Below, piece after piece: positions 1,356-15,457 of a stretch of 61,409 nucleotides of DNA. The position numbers and the translations under genes are program-made. This DNA is from Deltaproteobacteria bacterium. GTDB taxonomy: Bacteria > Myxococcota_A > Polyangia > Haliangiales > J016. The number at the start of each line of letters is the position of its first letter. Positions within the stretch are counted from its first letter, which is position 1. The notes under the pieces were generated by a model. It was not told where the DNA came from, did not search any database, and saw only the letters and a list, made by a program, of their open reading frames with translations. The stretch covers positions 1 to 61,409 of the forward strand of contig RFGE01000204.1 in the NCBI GenBank assembly GCA_003696105.1, given 5' to 3'.

Positions 1356-2504
1356 TCAGCCGTCGAACCGGCGCAGGTCGAACGCGTACAGAATGCCCCC
1401 GTTCGTCAGCACGTACATGCGATCGCCCGCCACGGCCGGCGTCGCCGATACGCCGTGCCCGGGATCGAAGTACTGATAGACGCGCCCGGTCCGCTTGTCG
1501 GTGACATATAAGCCCGCGTCGCTGAGCGCGAACACGGCGTAGCGGCCGGTGACGACCGGGTCGGCCGGCTCGCCGCCGCCGCGCGTTCCCTGGCGCCAGC
1601 GGACGTGGCCCGCGTCGTCGACGGAAAACAGGCCCTCGTCGGCCGCGGCGAAGTAGAGCGTGTCGCCGTCGGCGACCACCGTGCCGGCCCCTTCGACCTC
1701 CAACTTCCACTTGACGAGCCCGGTCGCCGCGTCGAGCGCGTGCACCCCTCCGGCCGCCGACGCCATCCACAGCGTGTCGCCGACGATGGTCGGGTGGCTG
1801 TCGACGTCGACGAACCGGTCAGCCTTGCCCTTGATGGAGGTCATCCACGCGACCGACCCGGTCGCCGTGCGCAGCGCCGCCACGGTCCCATTGGCAAAGC
1901 CGGTAAACAACAGGTCGCCCGCGACGGCGACCCCCGCGTGGCCGCGCAGGGTGAACTCCTCGGGCATGTCCACCTTGAACTGCCAGCGGTACGTGCCGGT
2001 CTCGCGGTCGACCGCGAACACCTCGTCGGCGTCGTCGCTGAAGAACACCAACTCGTCGCCGACCACCGGCGGCCGCACGACGGCGCCATGGCCGGCGTAG
2101 CGCCACTTCTCCTCGCCGTCGAACGTGTCGAGACACAGCAGGTAGCCGTCGTCGGTGCCGACGTACAGCCGCCCGCGGTCGACGACGGGCTGCGCGCTGG
2201 TCGCCCCGATGGCCCGCTTCCACACCACCGAGCCGTCGGCCGCGTCGAGCGCGTACAGCACACCGGCGCGCGACCCGATGTAGACGCGGTCGAACGCCAC
2301 CGCCGCCGTCGCGAACTCCTGCGCGGCAAACTCGTCGCGATGGTCCGCGATCACACGCTTCCACCGCAGGCTGAGCACCGGCAGGCCGATGTCCTCGCGC
2401 GCTACGGCCGCGACCGGATCGATCTGCTGCGGATGGCGCCAGCAGCCGGTCGCCGCCGCGGCGACGCCGGCGGCCGCGACCGTGCAAACCAGGCTACTGC
2501 GCAT
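1356..2504 (-). CDS. BamB-like PQQ-type beta-propeller lipoprotein
   Basis: Lipobox-like ATGC; repeated LYALDxxxG..W propeller motifs; yfgM-bamB-der synteny. Confidence 0.8.
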   Translation of the reverse strand: MRSSLVCTVAAAGVAAAATGCWRHPQQIDPVAAVAREDIGLPVLSLRWKRVIADHRDEFAAQEFATAAVAFDRVYIGSRAGVLYALDAADGSVVWKRAIGATSAQPVVDRGRLYVGTDDGYLLCLDTFDGEEKWRYAGHGAVVRPPVVGDELVFFSDDADEVFAVDRETGTYRWQFKVDMPEEFTLRGHAGVAVAGDLLFTGFANGTVAALRTATGSVAWMTSIKGKADRFVDVDSHPTIVGDTLWMASAAGGVHALDAATGLVKWKLEVEGAGTVVADGDTLYFAAADEGLFSVDDAGHVRWRQGTRGGGEPADPVVTGRYAVFALSDAGLYVTDKRTGRVYQYFDPGHGVSATPAVAGDRMYVLTNGGILYAFDLRRFDG

Positions 2505-9537: not shown

Positions 9538-9579
9538 GGTGGCAAGCCTAGAGCCAACCGCCCCGCCGCGCCACCGCCC

Positions 9580-9738
9580 CGGCGCCGCGTCGAGGCGCTG
9601 CGCCGGCTCAAGCAGTTCGTGGTCGCCTACCGCGAGGCGTACGAACGGTGGCAGCGCGGCGTGCGCGAGGTGGTGTTCCCGGCCGGCTCGCACGCCATGC
9701 GCGTGTATCAAGGCGTGACCGTCGCCGACACGGCTTGA
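9580..9738 (+). mobile_element. C-terminal remnant of a myxobacterial Y1/RAYT-like transposase
   Basis: RRVEALRRLKQFVVAYREAYERWQRGVREVVFPAGSHAMRVYQGV resembles the C-terminus of these transposases as I recall it. No start codon or HUH domain upstream. Confidence 0.55.
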
Positions 9739-9763
9739 CGCTCGGCCCCGGGCACGCAAAGAC

Positions 9764-9789
9764 CGCGGCAAGTGACTCCACTTGCCGCG
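9764..9789. repeat. perfect 11-bp hairpin downstream of the transposase remnant
   Basis: CGCGGCAAGTG-ACTC-CACTTGCCGCG. Confidence 0.75.
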
Positions 9790-9919
9790 CCAACGTGCGC
9801 CCGCCGCCAGCGAGTGTAGGCGCGGTCACCGGTTTGGCGTCGACCGACCCGGCGCGGCGGTGGCTCGTCAGCCCGCTGCGACCCGATTGCGCCCGCACCG
9901 GCCGCTTGTGCGACGCGAT

Positions 9920-10040
9920 TCATCGGCCGCGGCTCCAATCAACCCGGGTGCGGGCTTGTCGGGCGTGTTAATCAACCCGGGTACGGGCTTGTCGGGCTTG
10001 TCATCTGCCGCGGCTCTAATCAACCCGGGTGCGGGCTCGT
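9920..10040. repeat. three REP-like direct repeats
   Basis: AATCAACCCGGGT(G/A)CGGGCT(T/C)GT at 9937, 9970 and 10018, with palindromic core ACCCGGGT. Copies 1 and 3 also share the upstream TCATC(G/T)GCCGCGGCTC. Confidence 0.8.
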
Positions 10041-10106: not shown

Positions 10107-10451
10107 ATGAACTCGGCCGGCCCCATCGTGCGTCTTTATCGCGCGCTCGGCGACGAGACGCGCTTGCGCATGGTGCACCTGCTGGCCGCCGCCGGCGAGC
10201 TGTGCGTCTGCGAACTCGAGGCGGCGCTCGACATCCCGCAGTCGACGGCATCGCGCCACCTGCGCGTGCTGCGCGACGCGGGCCTCGTCCGCGACCGGCG
10301 CGCCGGCGCGTGGGTCCACTACCGCGTACACGAGGACTTGCCGGAGCCGGCGCGCGACGCGGTCGCGTCGGTCGTTCGCACCTTCGGCCGCACGGCGGCC
10401 GGGCGCGCCGACCTCGCCCGCGCGACGCGAAGCCGCCGGTGCTGCGACTGA
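10107..10451 (+). CDS. arsR: ArsR/SmtB family repressor
   Basis: [22 protein letters not shown]; C-terminal CC. Confidence 0.92.
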
Positions 10452-10495
10452 CGGCCCTCGCCGGCGCCCGGCGGACAAGACACGAACCACACCGC

Positions 10496-11509
10496 ATGAC
10501 CACACGCATCGGCATCAACGGATTCGGGCGCATGGGCCGGCTGGCGCTGCGCGCCGCCTGGGACCGCGACGACCTCGACGTCGTCCACGTCAACGAGACT
10601 GGCTGCGGCCCCGACGTGGCCGCGCACCTGCTCGAGTTCGACTCGGTGCACGGCCGGTGGCCGCACGACATCACCGCGGCCGACGGCGCCCTGCACGTCG
10701 ACGGGCGGAGCATCGGCTACACCGGCGAGGCCCGGCCGGGCGACGTGGCGTGGGACGACGCCGGCGTCCAGATCGTGCTCGAGTGCACCGGCGCGTTCCG
10801 CCGCCGCGCCGCGCTCGCGCCCTACTTCGACCGCGGCGTCGCCAAGGTGATCGTCGCCGCTCCGGTCAAAGAGCCGGACGTGCTCAACGTCGTGATGGGC
10901 GTCAACCACGACCGCTACGACCCGGCCGAGCACGACATCGTGACGGCGGCGTCGTGCACGACCAACTGCCTCGCGCCGGTCGTCCGCGTCGTCCACGATG
11001 GCCTCGGAATTCGCCACGGCGTCATCACGACCATCCACGACGTCACCAACACGCAGACCGTGGTCGACCGCCCGCACAAGGACCCGCGGCGCGCGCGGTC
11101 CGCACTGTTGTCGCTGATCCCGACGACGACCGGCTCGGCCACGGCGATCGGGCTGATCGTCCCCGAACTCGCCGGCAAACTCGACGGCATCGCCGTCCGC
11201 GTGCCGCTGCTGAACGCGTCGCTCACCGACTGCGTGTTCGAGGTCGCGCGCCCCACGTCGGTCGCGGAGGTCAACCGGCTGCTCGCGGACGCCGCGGCCG
11301 GACCGCTTGACGGCATCCTCGGTTACGAAGAGCGCCCGCTGGTATCCGTCGACTACCGCGGCGACACGCGGTCGGCCGTGATCGACGCGCGGTCGACCAA
11401 CGTCGTGGACGGCACGCAGGTCAAACTGCTGGCCTGGTACGACAACGAGATCGGCTACGTGCACCGCATGGTCGAGCTGGCCCAGCTCGTCGCGCGGTCG
11501 CTCGGGTGA
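10496..11509 (+). CDS. ArsJ-associated glyceraldehyde-3-phosphate dehydrogenase
   Basis: [22 protein letters not shown]; lies between arsR and arsJ. Confidence 0.92.
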
Positions 11510-12747
11510 CGGCGGTGGCGGCGGCGTCCGGCAGCGTGCGCGCCTACGCGATCGTCACCGCCTCGTACTGGGCGTTCACGCTCACCGACGGCGCCCTGCG
11601 CATGCTGGTGCTGCTGCACTTTCACGCGCTGGGCTACACGCCGCTGTCGCTCGCGAGCCTGTTTTTGCTCTACGAAGTCGCCGGCGTGTTCACCAACCTG
11701 TTCGGCGGCTGGATCGCGGCGCGCCTGGGTCTCGACCGCACGCTGCGGGTCGGGCTCGCGCTCCAGGTCGGCGCGCTCGCCATGTTGTCGGCGCTGTCGC
11801 CGGCGTGGCCGCGCGCGCTCCAGGTCGCGTACGTCGTCGCGGCACAGGGGCTATCCGGCGTCGCCAAGGACTTCACCAAGCTCAGCGCGAAGAGCGCGAT
11901 CAAGACGCTCGTGCCCGAAGGCGCGCACGGCACGCTGTTTCGCTGGGTCGCGCTGCTCACCGGCTCGAAGAACGCGCTCAAGGGCGCGGGCTTCTTCGCC
12001 GGCGGCGCGCTGCTCGCGGCGCTCGGCTTCCGCGGCGCGCTGTGGGCGATGGCCGGCGCGGTCGTCGCCGCGGCCGCCGTCGCGACGATCGGGCTGCCCC
12101 GCGGCATGGGCCGCGCCAAGGCGAAGCCGGGCCTGCGCGCCCTGCTCGCCAAGTCGCGCGCGATCAACGTGCTGTCGGCGGCGCGGCTGTTTCTGTTCTG
12201 CGCGCGCGACGTGTGGTTCGTCGTCGGCCTGCCGGTGTTTCTGTACGACCACGCCGGCTGGTCGTTCGTCCAGGTCGCCGGCTACATGGCGGCGTGGGTC
12301 ATCGGCTACGGCGTCGTCCAGGCCGTCACGCCTCGCGCGCTGCGTCGCCGCGCGGACGCCAACGACGCGCGCGCCGCCCAGGTCTGGGGATTCGTGCTCG
12401 CCGCGGTGCCGGTAGCGATGGTCGTCGCCCTGCGCACGGGCGCCGACCCGACCGCGACCGTGGTCGCCGGTCTCGCCGCGTTCGGCGTCGTGTTCGCGAT
12501 CAACTCCGCGGTGCACTCGTACCTGGTGCTCGCCTATTCCGATGCAGATGCAACCGCTGCCGACGTCGGCTTCTACTACATGGCCAACGCCGGCGGCCGG
12601 CTGCTCGGCACCGTGTTGTCCGGCGCGCTGTACCAGGCCGGCGGCCTGACCGCCTGCCTGATCGCGGCCGCGGCGTGCGTCGTCGTCTCCAGCGCGCTCG
12701 CGCTGTGGTTGCCCGACCCGCGCGCCGCCACGGCGGCGTCCCCGTAG
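11506..12747 (+). CDS. arsJ: organoarsenical efflux MFS transporter ArsJ
   Basis: [38 protein letters not shown] and [13 protein letters not shown] are typical of ArsJ; coupled to the GAPDH gene. Confidence 0.9.
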
Positions 12748-12802: not shown

Positions 12803-12979
12803 TCACGACCGGAACGAGCGCACCGCGAACCAGATCGCGAGCCCGAGCGCCACCCAGCCGGCGAGCCCCCCGCCGTCTCCCGTCGCGCACACGCCGCACG
12901 CCCACGCGGCGCGCGGCACGCACGCGGCGACCGCCGCGACGACGCCGGTCCGACACGCTGCTTTCGTGAACTGGCTCAT
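12803..12979 (-). CDS. 58-aa CxxC membrane peptide (not in the ORF track)
   Basis: GGAGG-TAGC-ATG start right after the upstream stop. Sequence MSQFTKAACRTGVVAAVAACVPRAAWACGVCATGDGGGLAGWVALGLAIWFAVRSFRS. Confidence 0.7.
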   Translation of the reverse strand: MSQFTKAACRTGVVAAVAACVPRAAWACGVCATGDGGGLAGWVALGLAIWFAVRSFRS

Positions 12980-12980
12980 G

Positions 12981-13892
12981 CTACCTCCGTGACGCGCTGC
13001 CGCTGTTCACCTCCCGCGCCCGCTCGGTGGCCTCCTGCGCGCCACCGGCCGCGCCCGCGACCGCCGACACCGCGGCCGCCAGCGCGCGCTCGTCGCCGGG
13101 CTGGAAGTTGTGGTGGCGAAAGCGAGCGGCGCCGGTTGCGTCGAATACGAACGACAGCGGGATGCTCGCGCCCGCGGCGTAGCGCGCCATCACGGCCCCG
13201 TCCGGATCGAGGGCCACCGGATACGGAATCCCGAGTTCCCGCACCGCCTCGTCGACCGCCGCGCGGTCGCCCGCTTCGTCGATGCTCACCGACAGAAACG
13301 CCACGCGATCGCCGTAGCGCTCGTACAGCTTCGCCAGGTGAGGTGCCTCCGCGCGGCACGGCCCACACCAGCTCGCCCAGAACACCAACACGAACGGGCG
13401 GTGGCCGATCCATGTGGCGACGTCGACCTCGCCGCCGCCGAGCAGCGGCGCGCGAAACGCGATCGCGCGCTCGGCCAACTTCGGTCCGCCACCGCTGTCA
13501 CCGCTGGCCCACACGACCCGGTACGGGCGGCCCATCTTCGCGGCCTGAGCCGCGACCGCGCGCTCGATGTCGGCGCGCGCCAGCGTCTGCCCCGGCCGCA
13601 GAACGACCGTGAACTGCTCCGTCGCGGCATCGAACCGCGCGTCGTCGACTGCGGGAAGCCCTTCCAGGGCTTCTACGACCCCGTTGGGTCAACCCATTCA
13701 AAGCGCGCCGTGAACGCGCCGCATCCCGTCGACGCGAAACGTCAACGGTGCCGCGCGGCGCGCCGCCGGGCGCGAGGCAGGCGGCGCCGGGCGCGCCGCG
13801 GCGCCGCCGCGCACGGGCGCGGTATCTTGCGCGCACGCGCCTGCCGCCAGCGCGCAGGTGGCGACCGCCGCCAACACCGGGTTCATTTGCAT
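12981..13892 (-). CDS. predicted selenoprotein: lipoprotein signal + HMA-like domain with UxxU + TlpA/thioredoxin domain (303 aa with readthrough)
   Basis: GGAGG RBS and ATG at 13892. In-frame TGA at 13700-13698 and 13691-13689 (..VDGMRRVHGAL-U-M-G-U-PNGVVEALEGLPAV..). The same frame continues to WASWCGPC and TAG at 12983-12981. Confidence 0.8.
13655..13673 (-). promoter_or_regulatory. candidate bacterial SECIS hairpin
   Basis: mRNA GAAGCCCU-GGA-AGGGCUUC. The G-containing loop lies about 23 nt after the second UGA and about 32 nt after the first. Confidence 0.6.
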
Positions 13893-14356
13893 GGTTTGAC
13901 CTCCCGCGTTCTTGTTGTCGGTACATCCTTCGATCGCCGGCTCGGCCTGCCGTCGGCGAGCGCCTCGAGGATCGGGCATCGCCGCACCGAGGCGTCGCCG
14001 TCGGCGCAGGTCGCCACCAGCTCGGCCAGCGCGCGCCGCATCGCGCGCAGCGCCCGGATCTTGTCGTCGATCTCGGCGATCTTGTGCTCGGCCGCGCCGC
14101 GCACCTCGCTGCACGCGCGCCGGTCGTCGTCTCGCAGCGCGAGCAGCTCGGCGATCTCGTCGAGCGTGAACCCGAGCCGCTGCGCGCGCTTGATGAATCG
14201 CACGATGCGCACGGCGTCGGGCGGGTACTGCCGGTAGCCGGACCGCCGGCGCGGCGGTTTCGGCAACAAGCCGCGCCGCTCGTAAAACCGCAGCGTCTCG
14301 ACGTGGACGCCGGCGGCGCGCGCGACCTGACCGGTGGTAAGCGGTTCGCCAGGCAT
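13883..14356 (-). CDS. merR: MerR-family regulator with Hg(II)-type Cys triad
   Basis: LTTGQVARAAGVHVETLRFYERRGLL HTH; RRACSEV and TCADGDASVRRCPIL provide three Cys equivalent to MerR C82/C117/C126. Confidence 0.85.
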   Translation of the reverse strand: MPGEPLTTGQVARAAGVHVETLRFYERRGLLPKPPRRRSGYRQYPPDAVRIVRFIKRAQRLGFTLDEIAELLALRDDDRRACSEVRGAAEHKIAEIDDKIRALRAMRRALAELVATCADGDASVRRCPILEALADGRPSRRSKDVPTTRTREVKPCK

Positions 14357-14363
14357 CAGCCCT

Positions 14364-14395
14364 AGCATGAACTCCGGACAGCGGTACGGAGTCAA
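14364..14395 (-). promoter_or_regulatory. MerR-type promoter/operator with elongated spacer
   Basis: TTGACT-CCGTACCGCTGTCCGGAGTT(20 nt)-CATGCT, with dyad ACTCCG(T)AC..GT(C)CGGAGT. Resembles Tn21 PmerT (TTGACTCCGTAC...). Confidence 0.85.
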
Positions 14396-14467: not shown

Positions 14468-15457
14468 TCACAGCAGCTTCTTGCGCGCCAAAAACGCGAG
14501 CAGGCCGCCGGTGATCGCCGCGGTCACGCCCCAGAATGCCGCGTAGCCCCACCGCCAGTGCAGCTCCGGCATGTTGTCGAAGTTCATGCCGTAGACGCCG
14601 ACGAGGAACGTGAGCGGCAAGAACAGCACGCTCACGACGGTGAGCCGCTGCATGATGACGTTCGTGCGGTGCCCCACCGCGGACACGTGCAGGTTCAGCG
14701 CGTCGGACAGGATCTCGCGGTCGGCCAGCAGGTCCTGCAACACGCGCTCGACCGTGCCGACCATGTTGTGCAGGTACGGTTGTGTCGCGTCGCTCACGAA
14801 CCGCGACCGGCGGGTGGCCAGGTCGGTGAGCACTGCGCGCGCCGGCAGCAGCACCTTGCGGAAGTGCACGAGGTCGGCCGCCAGCTCGCCGATCTCCGCG
14901 AACAGGTCCTCGTCGACCGCGCCGATGAGCCGCTGTTGCAAACGCGCCACCCGCTCCTCGAACTGGTCCTGCACGAGAATGTACCGGTCGAGGAGGTGGT
15001 CCCACAGCTCGTAGATGAGGAAACTCGGCGTCTGGGCGTGATGCGCGAAGTCTTCCGGCAGGTCGCGCTTGACGCCCTCGACGAACTCCACTCGGTCGGC
15101 GTGGACCGTGAGCAAGAACCGCTCGCCGACGGTCACGTCCACGCGCTGCAGCTCGAAGTCGCGGTCGCGCAGGCGACAGCCGGACAGCACCATGTGAAGA
15201 CAGTGCGGGTAGCGCGCGTGTTGGGTCGCCGGATCGCCGGCCAGCGCGTCCTCGATGACCTCCTCCGGCACGCCGAACACCTCGAGGTCCCGCGCGGCCG
15301 CGTGCAGGGTGTCCGGGTGCAGGTCCACCCAGACGAACCGCCCCGCGGCCATGGACGCGCCCGCATCGGCCAGCGCGATCGGCCGCACGGTGCGCCGGTC
15401 GAAATCGAGTTCGACCGCCCAGGGTTGTCGCCGATCGGTCGGATCCGCCTCGGTCAT
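14468..15457 (-). CDS. corA: CorA family divalent-cation transporter
   Basis: LPLTFLVGVYGMNF..MPEL and two C-terminal TM helices; start uncertain (15457 or 15466). Confidence 0.88.
   Translation of the reverse strand: MTEADPTDRRQPWAVELDFDRRTVRPIALADAGASMAAGRFVWVDLHPDTLHAAARDLEVFGVPEEVIEDALAGDPATQHARYPHCLHMVLSGCRLRDRDFELQRVDVTVGERFLLTVHADRVEFVEGVKRDLPEDFAHHAQTPSFLIYELWDHLLDRYILVQDQFEERVARLQQRLIGAVDEDLFAEIGELAADLVHFRKVLLPARAVLTDLATRRSRFVSDATQPYLHNMVGTVERVLQDLLADREILSDALNLHVSAVGHRTNVIMQRLTVVSVLFLPLTFLVGVYGMNFDNMPELHWRWGYAAFWGVTAAITGGLLAFLARKKLL

Follow-up and report, generated by a model that had tools for sequence, protein, structure and literature searches.

A putative double-selenocysteine HMA–thioredoxin fusion protein encoded behind a MerR-type operator in a Myxococcota genome

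The merR operon and its surroundings

The stretch of DNA analysed here, called the window below, is 61,409 nucleotides of contig RFGE01000204.1 from a deltaproteobacterial assembly, and it contains a compact operon (12803–14395) whose genes all lie on the minus strand: merR, a gene for a fusion protein with two in-frame UGA codons (the selenoprotein, for reasons given below), and a gene for a short CxxC peptide (Table 1). No reductase, MerT or P-type ATPase is encoded in the operon, which is not a classical mer operon.

Table 1. Positions of the features discussed (window positions unless a contig or locus is named)
Feature	Position	Strand	Details
MerR-type promoter/operator	14364..14395	-	-35 TTGACT at 14395-14390; -10 CATGCT at 14369-14364; 20-nt spacer
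Operator dyad	14371-14392	-	ACTCCGTAC-cgct-GTCCGGAGT within the 20-nt spacer
merR	13883..14356	-	157 aa; ATG at 14356; C82/C117/C127
Selenoprotein gene	12981..13892	-	303 aa if UGA codons 65 and 68 are taken as Sec; start 13892; ends TAG
Lipoprotein signal (predicted)	13833..13892	-	ends A-G-A-C20; judged by eye
HMA/MerP-fold domain	13509..13751	-	with insertion; GM-RRVHGAL-U-M-G-U-PN
Sec codons (likely)	13698-13700 and 13689-13691	-	at the HMA metal site
Two tandem hairpins	13655..13690	-	directly behind the UGAs; the second (13655-13673) is the candidate SECIS
TlpA/ResA/DsbE-type thioredoxin domain	13050..13487	-	WCGPC (C176, C179)
58-aa peptide	12803..12979	-	predicted signal ending A-W-A, then C-G-V-C, then putative C-terminal membrane anchor
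arsR, ArsJ-associated GAPDH gene, arsJ	10107-12747	+	converge on the merR operon
corA-like gene	14468-15457	-	upstream of the merR operon
Transposase-like fragment	9539-10040		short
Three repeats	9920-10040		roughly 40 nt each
C290 operon (L111)	G000 C290:3039-4600		operator, second merR, thioredoxin-like::MerC-like gene, small thioredoxin
C160 operon (L113)	G000 C160:805-2935		operator with 19-nt spacer, two HMA Sec genes, barrel-like gene
merT-merA-merP operon, in two pieces	G000 C371:1-2735 (L112); C51:1-1167 (L005)		70-nt exact overlap
ECF sigma-bearing loci	L105 1148-5306; L107 1546-6067; L097 3984-6175		operator-headed
Homolog without in-frame signal	L099 (G091 C83) 2030-2500		ends inside the thioredoxin domain

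The first-pass annotation had placed a Tn21-like operator with a dyad and a 20-nt spacer directly upstream of merR, and this assignment is confirmed: a MerR consensus allowing up to two mismatches matches the window once and 100 shuffles not at all, 13 of 14 positions agree with the TCCGTAC-N4-GTACGGA palindrome across a 20-bp spacer, and a matrix derived from 13 operators in other genomes ranks this site highest in the whole genome. In the accessible part of PMC1526738 that palindrome is given, with a 19-bp spacer, as the proteobacterial MerR site, a 9-4-9 arrangement in a 20-bp spacer as that of Firmicutes, and mixed types are said to occur, whereas the CueR and ZntR sites differ; by its letters the window operator, a 7-4-7 palindrome in a 20-bp spacer, is a site of this mixed type. 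Twelve of the 13 related operators in other genomes likewise have a 20-nt spacer. The merR start codon follows the -10 box after 7 nt, and since 7 of the 13 related operators likewise have an ATG 6–7 nt after their -10 box, the merR transcript is likely to be leaderless, as had been supposed. A sigma-70 scan detected no promoter here because it accepts only spacers of 16–18 nt, and a search for terminators at the operon found none.

The three cysteines of the encoded MerR (C82, C117 and C127) align with the mercury ligands of the Tn501 and Bacillus regulators, so that part of the earlier description as a three-Cys, mercury-type MerR stands; its specificity is less secure, in that PbrR also has the three metal cysteines, which are therefore not mercury-specific by themselves, and the loop between C117 and C127 has nine residues, where all eight related MerRs examined have eight. 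Eight is also the length given for Bacillus MerR in the available portion of PMC4551924. Among NCBIfam models the best match is TIGR02051 (MerR), at 140 bits against a cut-off of 150.85, followed by CueR (121.7/147.4), ZntR (121.6/143) and CadR-PbrR (99.8/151.45); the MerR that heads the merA locus L096 falls under the TIGR02051 cut-off in the same way (142.8 bits). The best PDB matches are Tn501 MerR (105 bits) and Bacillus MerR (93).

Tight coupling of the three genes was correctly noted at first pass. merR overlaps the start of the selenoprotein gene by 10 nt because the window MerR has a C-terminal extension, its relatives stopping about 15 residues earlier, and the ATG of the peptide gene lies 1 nt past the selenoprotein stop. 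The peptide matches no family in NCBIfam or Pfam. Its homologs number two in the fetched loci and two more from a protein search, which returned five matches among 41 candidates, three of them query sequences or a near-copy; they share PRxAWA-CG[QE]C followed by a hydrophobic tail, with A-W-A-C-G-x-C in all. This is consistent with a cleaved signal that would leave an N-terminal CxxC on a membrane-anchored peptide. The peptide gene lies directly behind merT::HMA in loci L105 and L107, and before merF in L107.

On the plus strand, arsR, an ArsJ-associated GAPDH gene (NF033735) and arsJ (NF033734), the latter two over cut-off, converge on the merR operon, and together with the corA-like gene on its other side they make up a small metal(loid) cluster. 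Farther out lies a short fragment that we take to resemble the end of a REP-associated transposase, with three short repeats, and a similar fragment is found behind the C290 operon described below.

A fusion protein with two candidate selenocysteines

The selenoprotein consists of a predicted signal, a linker, an HMA domain and a TlpA-type domain, and its frame is intact; the annotated selenoprotein gene is thus real, and is here refined to an HMA–thioredoxin fusion whose translation carries two in-frame UGA codons, U65 and U68, in a U-M-G-U motif. The protein is predicted to be exported to the periplasm and lipid-anchored, and in 12 of the 13 loci examined a hydrophobic stretch and a Cys precede the HMA domain. 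With the signal and its Cys ahead of that domain, export of the thioredoxin domain to the periplasm would require read-through.

The HMA domain is recognized by PF00403 (25.2 bits, Pfam cut-off 24.8). A model of the protein with Cys in place of Sec (pLDDT 93.8, pTM 0.85; a second such model, 87.1) predicts a beta-alpha-beta-beta-alpha-beta fold for it, which matches MerP 1osd (E 8.7e-5) and NmerA 2kt2 (E 4.5e-4) and copper chaperones equally well, the top matches being copper ATPase domains; as modelled, the fold does not separate mercury from copper, zinc or cadmium. The thioredoxin domain falls under AhpC-TSA/Redoxin in Pfam (PF00578, 65.6 bits); its NCBIfam matches all stay below cut-off, and no TlpA model passed. 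Its modelled fold is closest to DsbE 3gl3 (Z 20.9, rmsd 1.6, 138 aligned) and ResA 2f9s (Z 20.0), and its CxxC is invariant in 22 of 22 sequences.

Both UGAs are likely to be selenocysteine codons. The host genome has tRNA-Sec, selA, selB and selD, the last with one internal TGA, and U-M-G-U-P-N is in frame at all 14 loci, the window included. The five genomes found through an alignment blind to Sec codons all carry U-M-G-U, and a metagenome pattern that accepted Cys or Sec returned ten matches, of which all nine real ones have TGA twice. A full-length form with CxxC at the place of the motif does exist (P0224, 36% identical over 233 residues), and another homolog, P0005, begins at MGC at the motif position. 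Codon choice behind the UGAs is constrained, the commonest codon having a share of 0.95 at eight conserved positions there against 0.55 at 11 positions outside, and the constrained codons include CTT, which makes up 2% of the Leu codons of the host genome. The candidate SECIS has a GGA or UGGAA loop and lies 23 nt past the second UGA and 32 nt past the first; as drawn from the sequence, this second hairpin fits the bacterial SECIS model set out in the accessible part of PMC13188914. Across loci 91.8% of cells are paired over both hairpins and 87.5% in the candidate SECIS helix. Covariation is slight (one compensatory pair, common to three related sequences), and the folding energy is not above that of shuffles (z -1.04). 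An altered code with TGA as Trp was considered and rejected, as TGA ends the neighbouring merR and peptide genes and tRNA-Sec is present. Several other apparent thioredoxin-fold selenoproteins occur in the host genome among 27 crude candidates, many of them noise.

All 14 close database homologs start past the position of the first UGA, and the family is consequently hidden by annotation. Two sets of HMA homologs suggest that a wider family is hidden as well: P0141, P0155, P0187, P0207, P0216 and P0221 are stand-alone HMA proteins that share the insertion but show W-x-x-W in place of the motif, gene callers having probably read TGA as Trp, and P0139, P0169, P0171, P0194 and P0253 start at M-G-C-P and are probably of a UxxC form.

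Gene company in relatives and mer genes of the host

Relatives of the selenoprotein gene were recovered in 5 of the 146 other genomes sampled from the order, in nine of ten metagenome matches, and in at least three of the 80 loci listed in a genome scan; that scan used a TlpA-dominated alignment and a generic pattern, and the other 77 of the 80 listed loci were generic thioredoxins and were excluded. Homolog records that bear a name come from Myxococcota and Nannocystales, which makes a myxobacterium the likely host. Removal of duplicates (L016, L018, L100, L103 and the shorter cuts L011-L015) left 14 loci including the window, the 13 others each covering 2–18 kb, with L096, L097 and L109 as close kin; L101, a chance match in another frame, was dropped. 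One unpublished genome, G038, supplies locus L010 (one of the 14 loci and one of the seven with merT) and one of the MerT counts given below. A motif search of 400 other genomes sampled from the phylum had no match, so the family appears rare and patchy, and among plasmid records none covers 80% of the selenoprotein, the matches there being generic TlpA ones.

Among the 13 other loci merR occurs in seven, merT in seven, merA in three, any of these in nine, and the peptide in two. The arrangement of the window is not conserved: a search for the same trio, suggested at first pass, found it in 0 of 13. The selenoprotein gene does lie in or beside merA operons at L096, L017 and L102. L096 runs merR, selenoprotein, operator, merT::HMA and merA (TIGR02053, 535 bits, over cut-off), and L017 has the operator directly before the selenoprotein gene, then merB, merR, merT::HMA and merA. 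Four of the 13 have no mer gene (L098, L099, L108 and the 2.1-kb contig L104). ArsR takes the place of MerR in L102 and L108, the latter beside an RND efflux operon; a CDF transporter is present in L106 and a CopZ-N-like gene in L107. L105, L107 and L097 carry an ECF sigma factor and an anti-sigma-like gene before merT::HMA, and in two of these the gene directly behind that of the selenoprotein codes for a flavoprotein that resembles glutathione reductase and has no MerA CC tail. The homolog in L099 looks broken, by a lesion in the gene or an assembly error.

In the order sample of 147 genomes, 22 have a MerT-like gene and four an unbroken MerA. MerT is found in 4 of 6 genomes with the selenoprotein gene and in 18 of 141 without it, kin among these not being independent, and an unbroken MerA in 1 of 6 carriers and 3 of 141 non-carriers, plus the split copy in the host genome, of a kind that the MerA search threshold misses. 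At a lower threshold merA was not found in G038, G039, G091 or G115, four of the five same-order relatives that carry the gene. In G115, a genome 98% complete, operator, merR, the selenoprotein gene and merT::HMA are all present, and the best MerA-like match is 34% identical. Given the 22 genomes with MerT-like genes against four with an unbroken MerA, many myxobacterial merT::HMA loci may lack a reductase. A search for SelA succeeded in four of five carriers, G038 being the sole exception.

The first-pass annotation had described a system with no merA or merT. That description applies to the operon, but not to the genome, in which a search for merA recovered a merT-merA-merP operon split over two contigs. 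Against TIGR02053, whose cut-off is 454.45 bits, the two parts of merA match neighbouring stretches of the model at 246.6 and 296.2 bits; an HMA domain is present at the N terminus and an SCCAA tail at the other end, and an ordinary CxxC MerP-like gene is on C51. The matrix scan of the host genome places no MerR operator at this operon; the region upstream of it contains a GG-N10-GC site resembling those of sigma-54 and, in divergent orientation, a gene for a sigma-54 activator that lacks a sensor domain, and such control, if real, is unusual for a mer operon.

The same scan found two further operators: the window site scores 32.9, C290 30.0, C160 26.3 and C43, with a poor -10, 22.2, background beginning at 15.6. 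None of the three MerR-operator operons has merA. In the C290 operon the second merR has an eight-residue loop, and the fusion gene behind it joins a DF-family thioredoxin-like part (NF049942, 39.7 of 70 bits) to a MerC-like one (PF03203, 26.6 against a cut-off of 27.6). The first protein of the C160 operon fuses an HMA domain with D-U-P-R-G-U, two Sec four residues apart, to a DsbD-N-like domain, the second is an HMA protein with U-P-G-U, and the third, a predicted barrel-like protein, belongs to no family; standard gene calling truncates the two Sec genes. A fixed electron relay from the DsbD-N-like domain of C160 to the window selenoprotein was considered and dropped, the C160 gene occurring in 2 of 147 genomes and not in the other carriers. 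The only heavy-metal P-type ATPase of the genome is of copper type and without a MerR operator, and a DsbD membrane domain is encoded on C96.

Proposed function and relation to known systems

The reading we lean towards, with modest confidence, is that the selenoprotein is a lipid-anchored envelope protein that scavenges mercury and protects thiols as an addition to a MerT/MerA system, not as its replacement. Binding of Hg(II) to the three MerR cysteines would switch on the promoter with its 20-bp spacer, and SelB would decode both UGAs as Sec from the one downstream hairpin. Once the lipoprotein is exported, its WCGPC domain, presumably fed by DsbD/CcdA, would keep U-M-G-U reduced, and might also reduce the CxxC of the peptide and the thiols of MerP and MerT. 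Selenium binds mercury more tightly than sulfur does, and for this reason the selenolate pair would strip Hg(II) from thiols of the envelope and act as a buffer until the metal is removed through MerT/MerC and MerA. With its CxxC the membrane-anchored peptide, whose gene follows merT::HMA in two of the relatives, could offer a second, weaker mercury site close to the transporter. This layout of a MerR-controlled, predicted exported selenoprotein is in keeping with the first-pass proposal of a role in capturing metal, or in redox repair, in the envelope.

Several findings count against the add-on reading. The MerR stays under the TIGR02051 cut-off and has the longer loop, merT-merA-merP has no MerR operator, so that co-induction with the window operon is only a proposal, and passage of mercury from selenium to the weaker cysteines of MerT would be thermodynamically uphill. 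The four mer-free loci and the four carriers in which merA was not found point the same way. A bolder version, to which we give little credence, is that mercury resistance has a selenium-based arm: a diselenol trap that regenerates itself, the Sec-HMA being reduced by its own thioredoxin domain, would protect the envelope even without MerA, as part of a MerR regulon of three double-Sec HMA proteins, with the Cys-based merT-merA-merP controlled separately.

What the operon lacks, a transporter and a reductase, had suggested capture in place of import and reduction, that is, a stand-alone selenium sink in which protein and peptide trap envelope Hg(II) for good and import and reduction become unneeded. 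The lack of merA in all three MerR-operator operons, the gene content of G115, the excess of MerT over unbroken MerA in the order and the very high affinity of selenium for mercury (10.1101/2022.07.06.499078, as far as its accessible part goes) all agree with such a sink, yet the host genome does have merA, merT, merP and a MerC-like gene, relatives carry the gene in or beside ordinary merA operons, and a MerA split by contig ends escapes the search threshold, as happened in the host. A sink of one mercury per protein at the cost of two selenium atoms would also be expensive, and the conserved reductase domain suggests turnover, so that we regard this reading as improbable and the replacement of the classical route as not borne out. 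An operon that responds to mixed metal stress, or to a soft metal or metalloid other than mercury (Cu, Ag, Au, Cd, Zn or Pb), with a product acting broadly in the envelope as metal chaperone and disulfide repair enzyme, would accommodate the nine-residue loop, the ArsR-headed copies with their RND neighbour, the CDF and CopZ-N-like genes of relatives, the mostly copper-protein fold matches and the converging ars operon; it seems unlikely, however, when the operator agrees with the consensus for MerR but not with those for CueR and ZntR (accessible part of PMC1526738), family models and PDB both give MerR as the closest match, and merT and merA of relatives are driven from the same operator. 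That the trio is the remnant of a larger mer-type locus, ordered as in L107 from merR and selenoprotein to merT::HMA, peptide and merF, with the middle lost and no useful work left, is suggested by the end genes shared with L107 and L105, where merT::HMA precedes the peptide, by the trio's absence from the 13 other loci and by the broken look of the L099 homolog. Such an origin by deletion is plausible, but the sequence gives no indication of lost function: no break is seen in the three frames, the operator, the hairpins, either active site or the three cysteines of MerR, the genes are closely linked, and a decayed, idle fragment, which the first-pass annotation had also kept in view, is very improbable.

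Taken as an add-on to mercury resistance, the protein has several known counterparts. With NF041115 (UxxU_metal_bind) it shares the HMA fold and UxxU at the metal site, but its HMA domain scores 19.4 bits there against a cut-off of 95, neither the whole protein nor a genome search at this place gave a match, and it differs by a 6–7-residue insertion before the motif, the TlpA-type fusion, the lipoprotein signal and the mer-locus setting; UxxU HMA selenoproteins are thus already known, and the fusion with a TlpA-type domain passes no selenoprotein model. Like MerP of the MerP–MerT relay (TIGR02052, PF02411), it has an HMA domain predicted to be exported, is encoded behind a MerR operator and adjoins merT in seven of the 13 other loci, whereas it would have Sec for both Cys, a lipid anchor and an added redox domain, and an ordinary CxxC MerP exists separately, on C51 in the host and as merT::HMA in relatives. 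Judged by sequence it resembles a MerP with a built-in reductase, without being a TIGR02052 member by cut-off. TlpA/ResA/DsbE reductases have the same fold (Z about 20, rmsd 1.6), WCxxC and predicted membrane anchoring, but not the N-terminal Sec-HMA domain or the metal-sensor control. NmerA, a mercury scavenger, is likewise an HMA domain tethered to a thiol oxidoreductase; here the protein is predicted to be periplasmic, the partner has a thioredoxin fold in place of a flavoenzyme, and no mercury reduction is predicted. NF045683 (MerT/CopZ fusion-like) and the "putative mercuric transport protein" selenoproteins also have Sec in a mer-like protein, but those are membrane transporters, and the window protein gives no match.

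A literature search found no description of a double-Sec HMA–thioredoxin fusion. In the accessible part of PMC13188914, known TlpA-type selenoproteins have Sec in the thioredoxin site (UGC, UxxC) and not in a fused HMA domain, and the 119 families in Table 1 of this 2026 catalogue include a UxxU metal-binding protein and a MerT selenoprotein, an HMA–thioredoxin fusion being absent; the usual mer gene set, as far as given in the corresponding part of PMC3466566, includes no Sec-HMA-thioredoxin gene, and the available text of PMC8261052 has nothing on such a fusion. The accessible portion of 10.1101/2022.07.06.499078 states that no selenoprotein is known in mercury resistance and calls reliance on selenium a liability, with which a putative double-Sec protein behind MerR operators and inside merT/merA loci stands in contrast. 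Selenium might contribute tighter capture, faster ligand exchange or redox repair to bacterial mercury handling, and because Sec/Sec, probably Sec/Cys, and Cys/Cys forms exist in nature, its contribution can be tested directly.
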